A program made the position numbers. Shown here piece after piece: positions 18,001-24,000 of a DNA stretch of 64,000 nucleotides. Each line of letters begins with the position of its first letter. Position 1 is the first letter of the stretch. Origin of the DNA: Nitrospirota bacterium (GTDB lineage: Bacteria; Nitrospirota; Thermodesulfovibrionia; Thermodesulfovibrionales; Dissulfurispiraceae); contig JBFMCP010000002.1 of NCBI GenBank assembly GCA_040754455.1, forward strand, positions 64,001 to 128,000, in the 5' to 3' direction.

Positions 18001-21000
18001 CTGTTGTCCTGAAGGGCCTGTGGGGGGAGATCCTCGATATCGACCTGAAGCTTTACGCAGGCCTCGACAGCGAAACACTGAAGGAGCTTGAAAAGATGCA
18101 GTTCGCTACCATCTCAGAGGCAGCGCCCGATTTTAAGCAGATGGTCATGATGTTCCTTCCCGAGGAGCTGGAGGAATTAAAGCAGTTGATCGAGGGTATT
18201 GATCACTTCTTTTCCGGTGATGTGAACTACGTTGCCGCACGGGAGCACTATGAGCATGTGTTTAAAATGCTCGTCGAGATAAAGGAAAAGTTCAATATCG
18301 TGAACAACCCGACTGCCTTTATGAAGATGGTCGAAATGGCAAAGCTGTACATGGAAGGGTTGCCGCCGGCAGAGGTCAAAAAAGATGCCAAAGCCGCAGA
18401 CGCTACTTCAACAAAATCAAAAGCTTAGTTCCCCGCGTGTAAAGCCGTAAAGCAAGGAAATATTTTTTTGCATACAGATATACCTATGCTTTTCCACGCC
18501 TCACAAAATCAAAAACTTAGGATGATGTTTTCTCTTGCTTCGACACGGTATCGAGCCTCTGAATGCGCTACATTTTGGGTGCAATCACAGGCACAATATT
18601 CCCCGAGATCACGAAGCTTTTTTTTATCGGTGCGTAATTTTACGTAATCAATCGAAATCGTCTTTCTTTATCAGCGTACCTCTGCGTATCGCCCCGCTTC
18701 CCTGTGTATCCACATTGCCCCAGGTAAGGTACAAAGTTAGGATTAAATCAACATAACACATTGCACAGCGAAGGAGGGGAAAGGATATGCGATATGTGAC
18801 GGTGGGATTGACGGCAGAGCAAGCGCATTTTGTATCAGACATGCAGAGGCATTATGAGCGGATGGCGGGAGAGGCGATTCCGCTGCACCGCGCAATAGAG
18901 CGCATTATTGAATGCGCCATGCTGGAAAGAAAGGAGGTTAATGGAGAGGAAGAAAATTGGAAGGGCACGGCGGCCACCGTGCCCCACGTAAGCACCCCTA
19001 ACCCAAACACGAGAAAGGAGCTAACACTATGGTAGCAACGGCAGCAGTCGAAGTCAACGCAAAGAGGATCGCATCATTGAGGAAAGTAGCAGACGGAATG
19101 ACAAAGCAGATCGAGGAGAAGTTGAACTCGGCCACCAGCAAGCAGCGCCCCACCCGGCGGCGCGCAAAGATAGCCGACAGTCTGGAGCAGGAAGGCCGGA
19201 CCCTGCAAAAGGTCCAGCACGCGCTCAATGCGATCGCTGACGGCCTTGAGAGCGGCACGCTCCCCGAGAGCCTTGCGAAGCTCTCTAACCGGGTGCAAGT
19301 GGACGACCTCATCAGATTGAGCCGTCCATCTGATCGCCTGGAGGCCCTCGGCATCGATTTCGAGCGGGCCAAGGCCGATATCATGGAGATCATTAAAGAC
19401 GCTGTCCCGGTCGTCAGCCTGCAGGAAGCGAAGATCCGGAAGATGGAGCGCGACCTGATCGGCACCAAGATCCCCGGTTATTTCCCTACTCCCCGTGAGA
19501 TAGTTGAAGAGATGCTCCAGTCGGCGGATATCGCGCCCGGCATGAAGGTCCTGGAGCCGAGCGCCGGCAAGGGCAACATCGCGGATGTCATCAGAGAGCT
19601 TTATCCTGAGGTGGAGCTGTCGGTTGTCGAGCGCAATTGGACACTTTGCGAGATACTGAAAGAAAAAGAGCACAATCTTGTCGGTTATGATTTCTTGCTG
19701 CACGAGGGCAGGTATGACCGCATCATCATGAACCCGCCGTTCGAGAACGGGCAGGATATGGACCACGTGCGCCATGCCTATTCGCACCTGAATCCGGGCG
19801 GCATTGTAGTATCCATCGTATGCGAGGGCGCCTTTTGTCGGACCGATAAGAAGGCCTGCGATTTTAAAGACTGGATGACCGAAATCGGCGGTACATCCTT
19901 CAGTCTGCCGAGCGGATCCTTCAGCATGGGAGAGCGGTCCACGGGAGTCAATACAAGAATCGTCGTCCTCTACAAGGAAGAGTCGGCAGCGGAAGAAGCT
20001 GCGACCGAGACGGAAGAAGACATGGTGGCTTTTGGAGAAGGGTCTGAACAGCCGGCGGCTGAGGTCGTTCAAACTCCCGATGCGGAGCCGGAGCTAGCTA
20101 TCTGCCGGACATGCAAAGGCAGGGGAGAGATCGAGAATATCAAATGCGCGGACTGCAAAGGCACCGGATGGGCTGTCGTAGAAAAGGTCATTCACGAGGA
20201 CTGCAATGGACATGGCTGTGATGCCTGCCATGACGGTTGGATCGCAAGACAGGTGAATGCCGAGCCCAACGGCGTTCTTTCGCCGGACCAGACGCAGAAA
20301 GACCTGAACCTGAAGCATCCAGCAGGAGACCGAAAGCGCGGCACGCTGACCCTTATTCGCAATGAGTTCGAGGAATGTCTAAAGGCCGCTCTCGACATCG
20401 CCGAGCGGAGAAACACCATGCCGATTCTCTCGCATATCCACATCAAGGCTGAGGAGGGCGCCTGCCGCATCGAGGCCACCGATATTGAAAACTCATGGAG
20501 CAAGGTGATTGTCGCCAATCCGGTCTACGGCGCCGTCGATATGTGCGTCCCGCTCCATCTTCTCGCCAAAGAGGTCAGCGCGCTCCACGCAGACATCAAG
20601 ACCGTAGAGCTGTCGTTCAAGGGCAATACGGTAAAAGTCAACGGCAGGTGCGATATCTTCACTCTTCGCGGTGATGAATTCCCGGCCCTCAAAATTATCG
20701 AGGGCACCGAAGTTGCGATGAAGGGACTTCCGGCGAAGATCAAAAGAGTACTCGTAGCAGCAGGCGAGAGTGATACCCGGTATGTGCTCAACGGTGTCTA
20801 TATTGATTTGCAGAAAGGGCGCATCGTGGCGACCGACGGCCACCGGCTGCACATTGATGATATCGAGAAATCAGAGATGCCGAGTGTCATTCTTTCACGC
20901 AAGACAGCCGGGCTGATCGCCAAGCATGGCGCTGATACGCTCGTTTTCGGTGATGGGCATGTATCCTGCGCACTTGCCGGAGGTGTTCTGGTATCGAGGC

Positions 21001-24000
21001 TCCACGAAGGCACCTATCCGAACTACGAGAATGTAATCCCCAAAGAGCTCCCGATCAAGGCGACCTTCAGCGGGGCGGAGATGCTCAAGGTCCTTGAGGG
21101 AGCGGTCCCTATAGCGGCATCGAAGAGCAACGCGGTCAAGCTCTCGTTCAACGGGCAGATCGACGTGCATTCCACGAATCCCGATATTGGGCAATATCAC
21201 TGGTACGTGCCCTGCGAAAAAACAGGGGACGATATCTCTATAGCGATCAATGCACAGTATCTTATCGACTCCATCCGGTCATACACGACCAAGGAGAATG
21301 ATACTGTTATAATGGAGATCAACGAGCAGCTGACCCCGGTGCTCATCAACAGCAGGGCTGTCGTAATGCCCATGAGGTTATAGGATGATCTATTCAATCG
21401 GCTATCAGAAAAGGAAGCTCTCCGAGATAGTCAGTGTGATGGAGGAAAAGGACATCGACCTGCTGGTCGATGTCCGCTCCGTCCCCTACTCGCGGAAGCC
21501 GGAGTTTAACCGCAACCGCCTGCAGGAGGCCCTCGGCTCCCGTTATGAGTGGATGGGCGAGGTCCTGGGCGGCAAAAAGGGGCCTGCAAAGGAGATCGGC
21601 ATCAAAAAACTGCTCTTCCTTCACGGCCAGGGCAGGCGCCTGCTCCTGATGTGCATGGAGCATCACCCCTGCGACTGCCACCGGCTCTATGATATCTCCC
21701 GGCGACTCGCAAAGAGGGGCGTTGAGGTAGTGCACCTTTTCGACGGCCATGAGCAGACGACCGACGAACTATCAGAGGAGGCATGCAATGAACGCAAAAA
21801 AGATAGAAATAGATAGTGAGGGCAAAGCAGCGACACATCTGCTCTTCCCCAATCCGGACCAGCCGCGGAAGATCTTCAAGCAAGGTCCTCTCGAGGAGCT
21901 GGCCCTCTCCATCCGGGAGAAGGGGCTTATCGAACCGATTGTCATCACCCCGTACGGCAAGATCATTGCCGGCGAGCGGAGATGGCGGGCGAGCATGATG
22001 GAGGGCACCATCCAGACCGAGCGCGGTCCGATACAGATAACTCCTGTGGAACGGGTGCCGGTGATCACCAAAAACGCTAGCGAACGGGAGATCGCCGAGC
22101 TCGCACTTCTGGAGAACTGGCAGCGCGAAGACCTCACCATTATGGAAGAAGCGATGGAGTTTAAGAAGCGGCTTGCTGAGGGGTGGACCAAAGAGGACCT
22201 TGCAAGGATCCTCGGCCTTAAACAGACCTGGCGCATCGATGAGCGCTTGAGCCTCCTGAACCTCACCCCTGAATACCAGCAGATGGTAGCCGAAGGGAAG
22301 ATCGGCAACTCCGAGGCCTTCGAGATGAGTCGTGTTACCCCTGCCAAGCAGGGTGTGGTGCTGAAAAAGATCGTTTCCGGGGAGCTGAATACCTACAACA
22401 AGCTCAGGGCCTTTGTGGACGGAATGATCGCACTGGAGAGCCAGGGCAACATCTTCGATCTCAATTCCCTTTCGGAGGAAGAGCAGTCGTCGATCAGGAG
22501 CTTCGATGGCATGCTCGCCGGCATTGAGCGGTTCATCGGCAAGTTCAGAGATGAGGAGCGGATCGCGCTTCTCAAAAAAGCAGGCTTCCGCGCGGACATC
22601 AAGTCCGAGCGCCTCGACCTCATCATCAAGGAGCTGCAGGGGATACGGAAAATTATCCTTGCCGGCAAGGGGATCAAAGACGCCATGGCCGCTTAACTGT
22701 CAAATCATGAAATAGTTTTCTGCTATTAATAGCCCAAAGGTTAACACCGGAGGGCTATTTAATTTGGCAGACAACAAAGACGAAATTCTGGCGCAACTGA
22801 AGAAGAAACTCACGCTTATCAGGGTGAGCATCAGCAACGCCGTCAGACATCTCAACGAAGGCAGAGTCGTTCCTGCGAGCACGATCGACGATCTATATAC
22901 CCAGGAGACACAAATCCTCAAACAGATCGAAAGGCTCGAAAAGGAAGAGGATACCCCTCCACCTCCATCGGAATCCTCGGGCGAAGCCGGCGCCGAAGAG
23001 GAAGAGTACGGCATCCCGAAAGAGCTCCGCATTATGCGCCGTCCCTACACCATGACCGAAGAGGCGCGCCAGCAGCGGCAGAATGCGGCGAAGAGTCCCG
23101 CGAAAGCCGATGCCATGAAGGGGAACCGCAACGCCTGGAAGCACGGGCAGTATGCCGAGGGATTGGTGCGGAGCGTATTTCCTCCCTGCAAAACTACCTG
23201 TCGTCATTTTAAAAAATGTGAGCACGTTGCGAACGGCGAGACAGAGCCCGGCGAGATATGTCTTGACAATGCGCAGCTCATAAAGAATCTCCAGGCTGTT
23301 GAGAAAGCCATGAGAGACGGACAGCTTGGGGATTTGAAAGACCTTGCGGCTGTACAGATCGCCGGCGGGATAGAGGTTATCCAGCGATTGATTGCCGATA
23401 TCCTGACGGACGGAACGCTGGTAAAGTCGCTGATCTTCGGCAAGGATGGACAGCAGCTCGGTTACAAGGTTATGAATCACCCGTCGCTTTTGCCGCTGTG
23501 GAAAGGCATGGAGGTCCTGGGGATCACGCCCACAAACTTCATGATCACGCCGCAGATCGTGAAGAAGTTTGATACCGAAGAAAAGGTGGCTAATACTCTT
23601 GGCGCGGCAATGGGCCGCGCGGCGGCTGCTGCCCAGCGTGCGCGCGAGAAGAAGCCACAGCAGCAGTGAAGCCCTTCATTGATACGGTTGAGCCTGTAAC
23701 GATGGATGACCTCCGCAAGGCGATCCTTGTTCCCCGTGAAGATTTCGAGAAGTGGCTGGAGCTGCATAATTGGACTTACCACCAACTGGCCCGAAAAGAA
23801 TACCCCGAGCCCTACGAAGACCTGCAGCAGTTCCAGCTTGCCTGCTATTGCTCATCACCGCTCCTATGGATACCTGCTTTTTTAAGGGAGCCTGAAGACC
23901 CCGATCACCAGGACTCTTATACGCTTTGGGACTATCAGGAGGACTCTATTGCATATCCCGGCCACACGATACACAAGTGCGGCGCCGAGGTGGGCAAGAC

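Follow-up and report, generated by a model that had tools for sequence, protein, structure and literature searches.

A prophage gene that joins an amino-methyltransferase to a complete DnaN-type sliding clamp, and its candidate role in self-tethered DNA methylation

A window of 64,000 nucleotides (the whole stretch of DNA that was analysed) from a Nitrospirota bacterium harbors a prophage gene whose four-part product begins with a helical domain, followed by an amino-methyltransferase, a Cys-rich linker and, at the C-terminus, a three-domain DnaN clamp. The following features were assigned to the gene and its surroundings:

8737..11877, + strand: prophage primase-helicase (Zn_ribbon_DnaG, phrog_47)
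16354..17661, + strand: DAM-like and GNAT-like phage DNA-modification protein, upstream operon neighbour (PF22555, 2.8e-56; PF22559, 3.5e-41)
17634..18428, + strand: ParB-like protein, upstream neighbour (phrog_7405, ParB-like PHROGs)
19029..21383, + strand: whole fusion gene (protein P0001), 784 aa plus stop (ORF listing, translation)
19029..19328, + strand: N-terminal helical domain of the methyltransferase family, residues 1-100, with conserved T42, R44, R45 and A46 (23-member alignment)
19470..19979, + strand: amino-methyltransferase core, residues 148-317, in the order GxFxTP, motif I, NPPF (Pfam MTS and Methyltransf_23)
19551..19574, + strand: SAM-binding motif I, LEPSAGKG, residues 175-182 (alignment A5)
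19731..19742, + strand: catalytic motif IV, NPPF, residues 235-238 (invariant in alignment A5)
19980..20333, + strand: acidic flexible linker from methyltransferase to clamp, residues 318-435 (the stand-alone family ends at about 317, the clamp alignment begins at about 436)
20103..20231, + strand: Cys/His-rich insert, residues 359-401, with two CxxCxGxG knuckles (sequence)
20334..21380, + strand: complete DnaN-type beta sliding clamp protomer, residues 436-784, ending in VVMPMRL (three Pfam domains, TIGR00663)
20346..20690, + strand: clamp domain I, residues 440-554 (PF00712 DNA_pol3_beta, 40.2 bits, cutoff 24.4)
20718..21023, + strand: clamp domain II, residues 564-665, containing ATDGHRLH (PF02767 DNA_pol3_beta_2, 56.1 bits, cutoff 27)
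21030..21356, + strand: clamp domain III, residues 668-776 (PF02768 DNA_pol3_beta_3, 48.5 bits, cutoff 27)
21385..21816, + strand: DUF488 protein, downstream, beginning 2 nt past the fusion stop (PF04343, 1.6e-14)
21749..22696, + strand: ParB (ParB_N and HTH_ParB), downstream neighbour (Pfam, PHROG and NCBIfam profiles)

In addition to the three Pfam domains, the NCBIfam equivalog TIGR00663 ('dnan') matched residues 441-784 with 160.3 bits (cutoff 137.65). Clamps from the PDB aligned end to end with this half of the protein at E-values down to 5.6e-28, and the Atlas model of the clamp part superposed on clamps with a TM-score of 0.91 over 343 residues. The host possesses its own dnaN, which resides on another contig in a dnaA-dnaN-gyrB context and whose product is 33% identical to the clamp half. 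Comparison of the motifs forming the cleft revealed ATDGHRLH in the clamp half and VGTDGHRLAL in host DnaN, EGTYPNYENVIP and EGTYPNYEQVIP, respectively, and VVMPMRL in both. These motifs were invariant across 10 phage-clade clamps, as were T167, D168, G169, H170, R171 and H173 of the clamp module in alignment A2. Since the cleft motifs are as in host DnaN, the clamp half may well make use of host clamp partners.

The methyltransferase core gave a match to Pfam MTS at residues 170-261 (26.1 bits; curated cutoff 23). GxFxTP (150-155), LEPSAGKG (175-182), E201 and NPPF (235-238) were all invariant in the 23-sequence family alignment, and L175, E176, P177, S178, A179, G180 and G182 of motif I in alignment A5. 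The N-terminal helical domain is kept in 23 family members and is also present in P0002, a protein of the same architecture, and in the giant protein P0086. PDB profiles matching the core were those of adenine DNA methyltransferases, M.TaqI and KsgA-type enzymes, the closest solved relatives being adenine-N6 enzymes. DNA is not proven to be the substrate, because KsgA-type rRNA adenine dimethylases (E 3e-5) scored about like DNA adenine methylases (E 2e-5). No target-recognition domain was evident in the fusion protein. Its insert contains seven Cys (359, 362, 373, 376, 392, 397 and 400), including those of the two CxxCxGxG units, and gave sub-threshold matches to DnaJ_CXXCXGXG and Anti-TRAP. 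It is a gap in the aligned P0002 and was found only in P0001 among 222 proteins. Thus, the preliminary description of this gene as a one-frame fusion of 784 aa, linking an amino-methyltransferase module with motif IV NPPF through a Cys-rich stretch to a full three-domain clamp in a host with its own dnaN, and surrounded by DAM-like/GNAT, ParB and primase genes, was affirmed in all these points.

The methylase module also occurs within giant polyvalent phage proteins, and members of its family are elsewhere fused to ParB and ArdC. The ydcA methylase of the IncF leading region, which is surrounded by antirestriction, ssb and psiA genes, is 36% identical to the module (E 6e-26); at least 5000 plasmids matched, 3853 of which are conjugative. 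Source records label the relatives adenine DNA methylases. As judged from these sequences, the family context of the methylase is anti-restriction.

We also compared the fusion gene with independent contigs. Two Logan contigs, 57.9 kb and 46.9 kb in length, contain the whole gene without any difference or gap; the runs behind them are possibly the source of the present DNA. Contig pieces from two further samples covered the Cys/His-rich insert, again with 0 differences, one of them also the junction from linker to clamp. This identity check was based on contigs only and comprised four samples of two studies. The fusion sequence is not an assembly artefact. Where the clamp begins, no in-frame start codon preceded by a ribosome-binding site was found, nor was there an internal promoter on the + strand of the gene. 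Among 401 genomes sampled across the phylum of the host, one contained the fused gene.

Fused proteins are more frequent than initially reported. The earlier search result, 85 homologues of which two others are fused, could be reproduced, but this figure proved too low: both modules were present in 9 of 222 fetched relatives, namely the query and five other complete compact fusions, one apparently truncated protein and two giants. The exhaustive representative search and a scan of viral contigs added P0087, P0088, P0162, P0195 (apparently truncated), P0086 and P0215. P0086, which has an Acb1/2H-like domain, comprises 2812 aa and P0215 comprises 5194 aa. In both of these giant polyvalent proteins the N-helical and methyltransferase module is accompanied by a complete clamp, which is internal, so that its cleft-forming C-terminus is not free. 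Altogether, the methyltransferases of the fusions belong to two or more subfamilies, and the N-termini of the fused proteins are arranged in three different ways; in P0003, for instance, the methyltransferase is 29% and the clamp 50% identical to the window protein. On the clamp tree the fused state required at least four changes for five fused rows, and five changes when P0162 and P0195 were added (7 fused of 39 rows). A single fused clade was rejected by the AU test (p = 2.07e-5). Hence, no fewer than four or five distinct clamp lineages contain the fusion, and this polyphyly means that the join arose or broke several times. The nearest unfused relative locus (L008) has the order clamp then ParB, as in the window. 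Four clamps of phage type in GTDB genomes were without a methyltransferase of the window family in their vicinity.

Methyltransferases of the same family that lack a clamp were inspected for clamp-binding motifs, defined in passages of Ho and Harshey (2026, PMC12867686) as QL[SD]LF, and as Qx[D/E][L/M]F and QPDLF in Mor/MuC. Qxx[LM][FW] was present within the last 25 residues in 6 of 178 proteins, and three of the 178 end exactly on the motif (P0053, QLSLF; P0035, QASLF; P0032, QNKLF). Shuffling gave means of 0.73 and 0.03, respectively, and 0 of 2000 shuffles equalled either count. P0053 and P0035 share only 41.5% identity and have unalignable tails, but the motif is kept in both. A C-terminal QxxLF was also detected in 4 of 19 methyltransferases of other families beside viral clamp genes, compared to 5 of 265 other neighbours (Fisher p = 0.0015). 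Neighbours with QxxLF were found at gene positions ±1 or ±2 (9/134), but not at ±3 to ±5 (0/150). The regular expression for the tails was chosen after the first of them had been seen, and the hits are not independent, with L011 and L040 belonging to a single lineage and P0053 being a homologue of P0035. For methyltransferase genes as such the enrichment around viral clamps was a weak signal (13/134 at ±1 to ±2, 6/150 at ±3 to ±5; odds ratio 2.6, p = 0.06). The idea that the methylase is physically tied to the clamp is backed by the recurrent fusions and by these tails on clamp-less and unrelated methyltransferases.

We therefore rather favour, on sequence evidence, a self-tethering DNA adenine methyltransferase, which would methylate the element's own DNA from the clamp by means of the host polymerase and clamp loader and thereby serve anti-restriction. 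The C-terminal 349 residues would form a beta-clamp protomer and dimerise into a ring, which the host clamp loader would place on primed phage DNA. The host loader would be needed, because the element is without its own loader or polymerase: the primase-helicase was the sole replication enzyme recognised in the prophage, polymerase or clamp-loader families were not found on its contig, clamp-loader, Pol III alpha and Pol A families were detected only on other contigs of the genome, and Pol B was not found anywhere in it. The N-terminal methyltransferase would hang from the ring by the flexible linker of about 120 residues, be topologically held on DNA and be carried along the newly made duplex, modifying many sites with little sequence selectivity and shielding progeny or replicating phage DNA from restriction. 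In the relatives the coupling would be non-covalent, a C-terminal pentapeptide docking in the hydrophobic cleft of the clamp; the fusion would be its covalent version, leaving both clefts free for the host polymerase. What we infer is that adenine in DNA is the substrate, that the ring forms and is loaded, that specificity is low, that methylation is coupled to replication in time and that the benefit is anti-restriction. Elements of this kind probably use the clamp as a carrier, methylating their own DNA and escaping restriction in this way.

An unlikely alternative to the self-tethering enzyme is an early-acting or injected polyvalent anti-restriction protein, which is packaged in the virion, enters with the DNA and methylates it before host restriction, its ring threading, or being pre-threaded, onto the linear genome end without a loader. 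For the giants, whose clamps are internal and one of which (P0086) has a phrog_598 'DNA ejection' gene two genes upstream, an injected role fits better than one in the replisome. Since they contain the same N-helical and methyltransferase module and a complete clamp, this may apply to the window protein, too. Terminase and portal follow its gene at a distance of 2.3 kb, which makes this a late-gene position of packaged polyvalent proteins according to sections of Iyer et al. (2017), and its methyltransferase family is found in plasmid leading regions acting at DNA entry. On the other hand, the protein lacks a recognisable packaging or peptidase domain, and the operon holds ParB and DNA-modification genes instead of head genes. 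Strictly kept cleft motifs, the same as in host DnaN, are expected if partners of the host replisome are used, and the tails with which relatives would bind the clamp suggest clamps that the cell has already loaded.

It is still less probable that the clamp is mainly a replication or late-transcription factor (as processivity factor redirecting host Pol III, or as platform for the Mor-type activator), to which the methylase was fused for co-expression or regulation without mechanistic coupling. Stand-alone clamps of the same clade are indeed common in phages (34 clamp-only proteins among the 222 fetched; 276 viral relatives), the prophage encodes a Mor-family activator at 14408-15007, and Mor/MuC factors require the clamp for late transcription, as stated in parts of PMC12867686. 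Yet, reading by eye did not disclose a clear clamp-binding motif in the Mor homologue of the window, and both the repeated independent fusions with different methyltransferases and the tails on clamp-less ones are hard to explain without a functional link. That the clamp is a decoy or poison, which traps host clamp-binding proteins or disturbs host replication and repair by mixed beta dimers while methylation is a separate matter, appears very doubtful: conserved cleft motifs would suit it, but a full-length three-domain clamp above the DnaN equivalog cutoff is needless for a decoy, and the recurrence of methyltransferases as partners would be left unexplained. We regard as highly improbable that RNA or protein (e.g., rRNA adenine, or the clamp or replisome) is methylated instead of DNA. 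The similar KsgA-type score and the best Pfam match, MTS, whose family includes rRNA and protein methylases, are opposed by the DNA-centred contexts (ParB and ArdC fusions, polyvalent proteins, leading regions with ssb and antirestriction genes, a DNA clamp) and by the source records. Finally, a merger of adjacent genes by a lost stop codon, which had been considered beforehand, or by assembly error can practically be dismissed. Unfused layouts, which would suit it, are known (a clamp adjoining a methyltransferase in Tunturi_4, and L008), but the contigs of four samples from two studies were identical without indels, P0002 is 55% identical across the full length, at least four further fused proteins are known, and neither a start with ribosome-binding site at the clamp nor an internal + strand promoter was found.

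The proposed self-tethering methyltransferase has counterparts in other systems. Eukaryotic DNMT1 is recruited to the replication clamp PCNA and methylates nascent DNA; it contacts the PCNA trimer non-covalently by a PIP box and performs maintenance cytosine-5 methylation. Likewise, the window protein and its relatives would couple a DNA methyltransferase to a replication clamp, but they involve a covalent fusion or a C-terminal tail, an adenine-type enzyme and a beta dimer, are unrelated in sequence, and would act in conflict, not epigenetically.

A published description of a methylase-clamp fusion was not found in the literature. The DNA methylase-helicase dyad of polyvalent proteins, the DarB type of phage P1, likewise joins covalently a phage or plasmid adenine methylase of gamma-type order to a DNA-moving module and is interpreted as restriction protection (parts of Iyer, Burroughs and Aravind 2017, PMC5512222). 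There the partner is an SF2/SNF2 ATPase, whereas here it is a passive sliding clamp, and the window methylase is not DarB (BLASTP E = 0.14). The main text of that paper mentions neither clamp, DnaN, PCNA nor processivity. M.EcoGIX and M.BceJIII, plasmid single-strand-specific methyltransferases, are also orphan anti-restriction adenine methylases of mobile elements, and their activity seemingly depends on the replication machinery. Pol I co-purified with these enzymes, and the sliding clamp was suspected to mediate between the two; an artificial Pol I fusion was needed to retain activity (sections of Fomenkov et al. 2020, PMC7736820). The window protein resembles a naturally occurring case of such tethering, though the clamp link of these enzymes is speculative and non-covalent, and M.EcoGIX belongs to another class (PF01555 N6_N4_Mtase) without significant similarity to the window module (E = 0.012).

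The tails of P0053, P0035 and P0032 resemble those of known beta-clamp clients, including MuC/Mor of phage Mu, which hijack the clamp by terminal motifs of the QL[SD]LF type (passages of PMC12867686). Those clients are transcription factors, polymerases, repair proteins or transposases; among the literature matches listed, neither a DNA methyltransferase nor a client with its own clamp was found. Stand-alone phage beta clamps (phrog_947) share the three-domain DnaN fold and occur in phages without own polymerase. They comprise about 360-550 aa and lack an enzymatic domain, whereas the window clamp is preceded by 435 residues of methylase and linker. No annotated methyltransferase was found near the clamp in the cultured Rhizobium phages 16-3 and RHph_X2_25. 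The window clamp matched phrog_947 at 4e-48 and is 28% identical to p081 of Rhizobium phage 16-3.

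The preliminary description had placed a DNA methyltransferase and a beta sliding clamp in one reading frame of the prophage, and this was confirmed. The following gene consists of 784 codons in one uninterrupted frame:

19029-21383, + strand, methyltransferase-linker-beta clamp fusion gene (product P0001, 784 aa)

In P0001, a small methyltransferase of class I (Pfam family MTS) was found again at residues 170-261 (26.1 bits, cutoff 23). The clamp, which had been claimed to be full, comprises DnaN domains at 440-554, 564-665 and 668-776, each scoring above the Pfam gathering threshold. 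Three such tandem domains (PF00712, PF02767 and PF02768) in a protomer of about 360 aa are the hallmark of DnaN, and residues 441-784 reach 160.3 bits against the DnaN equivalog TIGR00663 of NCBIfam (cutoff 137.65). Solved clamps align with this part from end to end (6deg with an E-value of 5.6e-28; 7rzm with residues 11-374 of its 374), and in the ESM Atlas the model for residues 438-784 matches bacterial clamps with a TM score of 0.91 over 343 residues. The host indeed possesses a dnaN of its own, located on another contig in a dnaA-dnaN-gyrB context, to whose product the phage clamp is 33% identical. Both clamps contain TDGHRL, EGTYPNYExVIP (pattern YPxYxxVIP) and a C-terminal VVMPMRL, and in an alignment of 10 phage-clade clamps the same motifs (TDGHRL, YPxYxxVIP and MPMRL) are invariant. 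We take these three stretches to line the partner-binding cleft, as in the structure of the E. coli clamp.

An assembly accident is excluded as the origin of this frame. Two contigs (57.9 kb and 46.9 kb), assembled from runs that belong to two studies and may be the source of the window DNA, contain the gene with no differences and no gaps. Two additional samples yielded contig pieces that span the Zn insert without any difference, and in one of these samples the linker-to-clamp junction is spanned as well; the comparison is one of assembled contigs only, and run X5 and parts of X4 do not span the whole gene. The gene belongs to a tight co-directional block. It overlaps the preceding small ORF, and a DUF488 gene begins 2 bases past its stop codon. 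There was no sign of a free clamp being produced from an internal promoter or start: inside the fusion gene no sigma-70-like promoter was found on the + strand, and reading by eye disclosed no in-frame ATG, GTG or TTG with a Shine-Dalgarno (SD) sequence near residue 436. The sole SD-like GGAG followed by an ATG that was noticed in this way belongs to Met464, which lies within clamp domain I. Tandem repeats were not found in 18000-22500.

Residues 1-317 of P0001, the METHYLTRANSFERASE part, represent a complete member of a methyltransferase family whose stand-alone members comprise 310-340 aa. In this family, the catalytic core is preceded by a helical domain at the N-terminus, which bears a conserved TxRRA signature. 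An alignment of 23 sequences (A5) revealed as invariant G150, F152, T154, P155, LEPSAGxG (175-182), E201 and NPPF (235-238). The motifs of P0001, G150-F-P-T-P155, L175-EPSAGKG-182 (motif I) and N235-PPF-238 (motif IV), are arranged in the gamma-type (EcoKI/TaqI-like) order, for which the criterion was an F-x-T-P helix, then motif I (ExxxGxG) and then motif IV ((N/D)PP(F/Y)). When compared with the PDB, the family profile matched the adenine DNA methyltransferase 7vru (2e-5), M.TaqI (6e-4) and type I M subunits (about 1e-3), as well as KsgA-type rRNA adenine methylases (3e-5). On the basis of the motif order and the profile matches, adenine N6 is the likely chemistry of the enzyme and DNA its likely substrate. 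MTS is the only methyltransferase family that P0001 matches above the cutoff; Pfam N6_Mtase gave no match. In A5, where the family members stop about 80 residues past NPPF, no target-recognition domain is evident, and the lack of a recognisable one suggests that the methylase may have a relaxed sequence specificity.

Judged by its relatives, this is a family of mobile elements. Over 170 residues the module is 36% identical (E 6e-26) to the product of ydcA (187 aa) in the IncF leading region, where antirestriction, ssb, ParB-like and psiA genes are neighbours. At least 5000 plasmid records matched, and 3853 among the matches listed were conjugative. The module also matches phrog_15406, phrog_11358 and phrog_10691, profiles of 2789-3925 positions that were built from giant proteins; dozens of representatives of 1000-5194 aa carry it, and in some homologues it is fused to ParB or ArdC. 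P0001 thus displays the trait of polyvalent proteins, i.e., disparate domains in one mobile-element polypeptide and modules in common with giants. The M.EcoGIX family was rejected, as PF01555 matches M.EcoGIX at 1.6e-40 and not P0001 (pairwise E = 0.012). The same applied to the DarB methylase of P1, part of a methylase-helicase dyad (BLASTP E = 0.14, from a pairwise comparison only), P0001 being devoid of a helicase domain. The M.EcoGII type was set aside, since M.EcoGII is assigned to class beta in PMC7544214.

Between the modules, the Cys-rich stretch with CxxC pairs reported previously was recovered. It harbors seven cysteines (359, 362, 373, 376, 392, 397 and 400), including two CxxCxGxG units (C359-G366 and C373-G380). 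A zinc finger of the DnaJ CxxCxGxG type was rejected, as the likeness is sub-threshold (PF00684, 15.4 bits against a cutoff of 32.7); the scores for Anti-TRAP (17 against 32) and RtpA (24.2 against 65) also fell below the cutoffs. The insert is missing from the fused homologue P0002 and therefore goes back to a recent insertion or loss. The P0001 linker did not contain a strict clamp-binding motif (CBM), only the weak QKDLNL (423-428), with QEELQM in P0002.

According to the preliminary description, 85 homologues included two other fusions. A word-indexed search gave the same 85 matches and the same two fusions, namely P0002 (715 aa, 55% identical to P0001 over the full length) and P0003 (629 aa), whose clamp is 50% and whose methyltransferase, of a different subfamily, 29% identical to that of P0001. 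The total, however, had been set too low. After an exhaustive representative search (31,029 matches at E <= 1e-3) and a screen of all 222 fetched proteins with local profiles, nine proteins were known to contain both modules. Six of them are complete compact fusions (P0001, P0002, P0003, P0087, P0088 and P0162), P0195 is fused and appears truncated, and two are giants, P0086 (2812 aa) and P0215 (5194 aa). P0148 is a possible tenth, with a match too weak to count. In P0086, encoded on a 94-kb viral contig (L007:5568-14006), the internal clamp (1578-1957) is complete and accompanies an Acb1/2H-like phosphodiesterase domain (545-639) and the N-helical and methylase module; about 850 residues at the C-terminus are uncharacterised. 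Among 401 sampled genomes of the host phylum, only the window genome carries the fused gene, and the fusion is therefore a sporadic, mobile trait.

In a maximum-likelihood tree built from 43 clamp modules with the host DnaN as root, the compact fusions are dispersed among stand-alone phage clamps. P0001 and P0002 are paired; P0003 has two stand-alone clamps as its sister group (SH-aLRT 95) and P0087 a single one (SH-aLRT 97), with P0088 next. By parsimony, the five fused rows require at least four changes of state, and an AU test rejected the five fusions held together (delta lnL 74, p = 2.07e-5). P0162 and P0195 were added in a quick tree (LG+G4) that omitted two rows with long branches; both fell outside the core clade on long branches, and five changes were counted with seven fused of 39 rows. 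The join between the modules has been made or broken repeatedly, the tree not separating fusion from fission.

The surroundings of phage clamps were studied on viral contigs, where a scan with the clamp alignment yielded 276 relatives, the best 80 of which were kept. The clamp gene was called in 74 of the 80 and not in the other six; at 80% identity 41 clusters resulted. DNA methyltransferases (Pfam families N6_Mtase, N6_N4_Mtase, C-5 and DUF4942-type) occur among the two genes on either side of the clamp in 12 of the 41 loci, accounting for 13 of 134 neighbour proteins, and among the five genes on either side in 17 loci. At the control positions ±3 to ±5, of which 150 of 169 proteins were scanned (four loci outside), they make up 6/150 (odds ratio 2.6, p = 0.06), and the immediate neighbours taken by themselves gave 7/68 (p = 0.12). 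Since 17/41 loci are concerned, methyltransferases are common around phage clamps, but at these p values a concentration of them in the directly adjoining genes is no more than suggestive. Among the best 80 of 276, L008 is the unfused relative closest to P0001; its clamp is 50% identical to that of P0001, and its gene order, N6_Mtase-like gene, small ORF, clamp and ParB, mirrors the order clamp-DUF488-ParB of the window. In the Tunturiibacter phage Tunturi_4 a DUF4942 methyltransferase follows the clamp; near the clamps of the Rhizobium phages 16-3 and RHph_X2_25 no methylase was found. A scan of genome contigs with the clamp alignment produced mostly dnaN genes of Nitrospirota MAGs, presumed to be chromosomal on the strength of identity and record titles, and its four phage-type clamp loci had no methyltransferase of the P0001 family nearby. 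The cellular clamps nearest to the phage clamp (L091-L170; 30-41% identity), presumed chromosomal DnaN of Nitrospirota/Thermodesulfovibrionales MAGs, give hints to the host lineage and to the source of the phage clamp clade. Many stand-alone phage clamps of the clade (P0004, P0005, P0028, P0030 and L008:4656-6047) have basic Lys/Ala/Pro-rich N-terminal tails of 70-130 residues, and in the subgroup P0016, P0017, P0021, P0030 and P0031 an insert of about 90 residues resides within the clamp.

The most informative result of the analysis was obtained by searching for clamp-docking tails, both in the neighbours of clamps and in the P0001 family. The CBM consensus is QL[SD]LF, and Qx[D/E][L/M]F and QPDLF occur in Mor/MuC factors (PMC12867686). 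Among the unfused methyltransferases encoded beside clamps, the L008 protein terminates exactly in QPGLF. QIDLF and QIGLF are each situated 9 residues from the end of the L011 and L040 proteins, the L049 protein exhibits QPPLF, and degenerate xxLF tails were seen in L056, L039 and L060. QxxLF, a pattern fixed after the first tails had been seen, was present within the last 25 residues of four out of 19 methyltransferases as against five out of 265 other neighbours (p = 0.0015); as L011 and L040 belong to the same lineage, the tailed methylases represent three independent ones. All nine motif-bearing proteins are encoded at ±1 or ±2 (9/134 against 0/150 farther out).

Terminal motifs were also detected in the P0001 family. 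Qxx[LM][FW] occurs within the C-terminal 25 residues of six out of 178 fetched clamp-less members, and in three of these the motif forms the very end of the protein: P0053 with the textbook consensus QLSLF, P0035 with QASLF and P0032 with QNKLF. Shuffling of the last 100 residues of each protein gave means of 0.73 for the first count and 0.03 for the second, and none of 2000 shuffles reached either of the observed counts. In all three proteins about 30-130 residues of low-complexity linker separate the methylase core from the terminal pentapeptide, a layout shared with known clamp clients. P0053 and P0035 are 41.5% identical; their tails do not align, and the motif is kept in both. Because clamp-less members possess terminal CBMs and others are fused to a clamp, we predict that within one enzyme family some members dock on the clamp and others carry it.

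That the CBM-tailed N6_Mtase-like protein of L008 is an unfused counterpart of P0003 or P0001 was not supported (E 0.003 and 0.22, respectively). This protein (L008:3394-4206), with its QPGLF end, matches only the first third of the Pfam N6_Mtase model, and no NPPF was seen in it; it may be an inactive methylase-like adaptor. Of the five motif carriers other than methyltransferases, three are PcfK-like. They are encoded one or two genes from the clamp (L031:3208-3618, QVDLFS; L077:5812-6219, QFLLFEDL; L083:3142-3549, QSELF), and several loci have PcfK-PcfJ pairs next to the clamp. PcfK-like proteins thus appear to be one more class of clamp clients, not described so far.

The element itself is a tailed prophage with terminase, portal, head and tail genes. 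DAM-like+GNAT, ParB and primase genes had been named as neighbours of the fusion gene, and all of them reside in the same prophage:

5401-6450, ParB-family gene
8737-11877, primase-helicase gene
13510-15007, tyrosine recombinase and Mor-family activator genes
16354-17661, gene for a DAM-like + GNAT modification protein (PF22555 and PF22559)
17634-18428, ParB-family gene
21749-22696, ParB-family gene
48547-49581, DGR-type reverse transcriptase gene (phrog_1423, E 2.8e-147), adjoining tail genes

Clamp loader (PF13177), Pol III alpha and Pol A families were found on other contigs only, and Pol B was not found in the genome. As the prophage has neither a polymerase nor a clamp loader of its own, it must use those of the host. 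None of the other prophage proteins revealed a convincing terminal CBM, the Mor homologue showing only a weak 'ERLIPLF'.

In the simplest reading, the sliding clamp would keep the methylase on DNA. The host loader would place a dimer of the phage clamp module at primed sites, as a ring with one methylase per protomer carried on a flexible acidic linker. The tethered enzyme would gain one-dimensional access to freshly made, unmodified duplex, and fusion instead of docking would mean that neither cleft of the ring is withheld from the polymerase. We put forward, as a tentative proposal on which our doubts still slightly outweigh our confidence, that clamp riding is a general, so far unrecognised route of DNA methylation by which phages and plasmids escape restriction, a counterpart of DNMT1-PCNA in prokaryotes and viruses. 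Unrelated methyltransferase families would then be genuine clamp clients by means of a C-terminal CBM or a private clamp, and fusion would yield a processive 'sliding methylase' of low specificity. The main rival explanation is that the methylase-clamp protein is an injected, early-acting form. It is favored by the giants, in which the clamp is embedded internally and the C-terminus is not free, by the gene of the 'DNA ejection' family (phrog_598) two genes upstream of P0086, and by the position of the window gene just upstream of the packaging genes, near terminase and portal. Participation of the clamp in late transcription dependent on Mor can be envisaged as well, but it leaves the link to the methylase unexplained.

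Orphan methylases of phages and plasmids are a main route of restriction escape, and it is a puzzle how a weak or non-specific methylase modifies a whole genome before nucleases act. The fusion and the tails on its relatives suggest an answer, namely that the replication clamp holds the enzyme on DNA. In eukaryotes, DNMT1 is coupled to PCNA, and the methylase-clamp tether parallels this coupling. As a natural tether, P0001 also parallels the artificial M.EcoGIX-Pol I fusion, which was needed to keep activity and for which Fomenkov et al. suspected the clamp as the missing link (PMC7736820). A further parallel is the DarB-type methylase-helicase dyad, whose movement is supplied by an ATP-driven translocase (PMC5512222) in place of a clamp. 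In the accessible portions of the literature, neither a methyltransferase-clamp fusion nor a methyltransferase as beta-clamp client was found described. The main text of the polyvalent-protein paper (PMC5512222) does not mention clamp, DnaN, PCNA or processivity, and the jumbo-phage paper mentions clamps only as parts of the replisome. If clamp riding holds true, DNA methyltransferases would count among the clients of the beta clamp. Clamp riding could also account for the loss of activity that plasmid single-strand methylases showed when purified away from replisome proteins (PMC7736820), and would offer a model from nature for a DNA-marking tool that is processive and independent of sequence.

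Some other prophage genes deserve mention. The DAM-like+GNAT protein is a second, different candidate for DNA modification, encoded in the operon block that also contains the methylase-clamp gene. Two of the three ParB genes flank the latter, and ParB also follows the clamp in the loci L008, L051 and L055. A low-GC stretch within 12000-15000 (0.451 over 12001-14000) contains the tyrosine recombinase gene (13510-14523) in the middle of the element. The Mor-family activator gene (14408-15007) comes directly after it; as listed, its ORF overlaps the recombinase, and the true start of Mor is probably later. The reverse transcriptase probably belongs to a diversity-generating retroelement acting on the tail fibre. 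The portal protein (25464-27578, 704 aa) matches with its C-terminal residues 592-673 minor head/head-morphogenesis PHROGs, a portal-type minor-head domain that has been tied to the packaging of cargo proteins (Iyer et al. 2017, PMC5512222).
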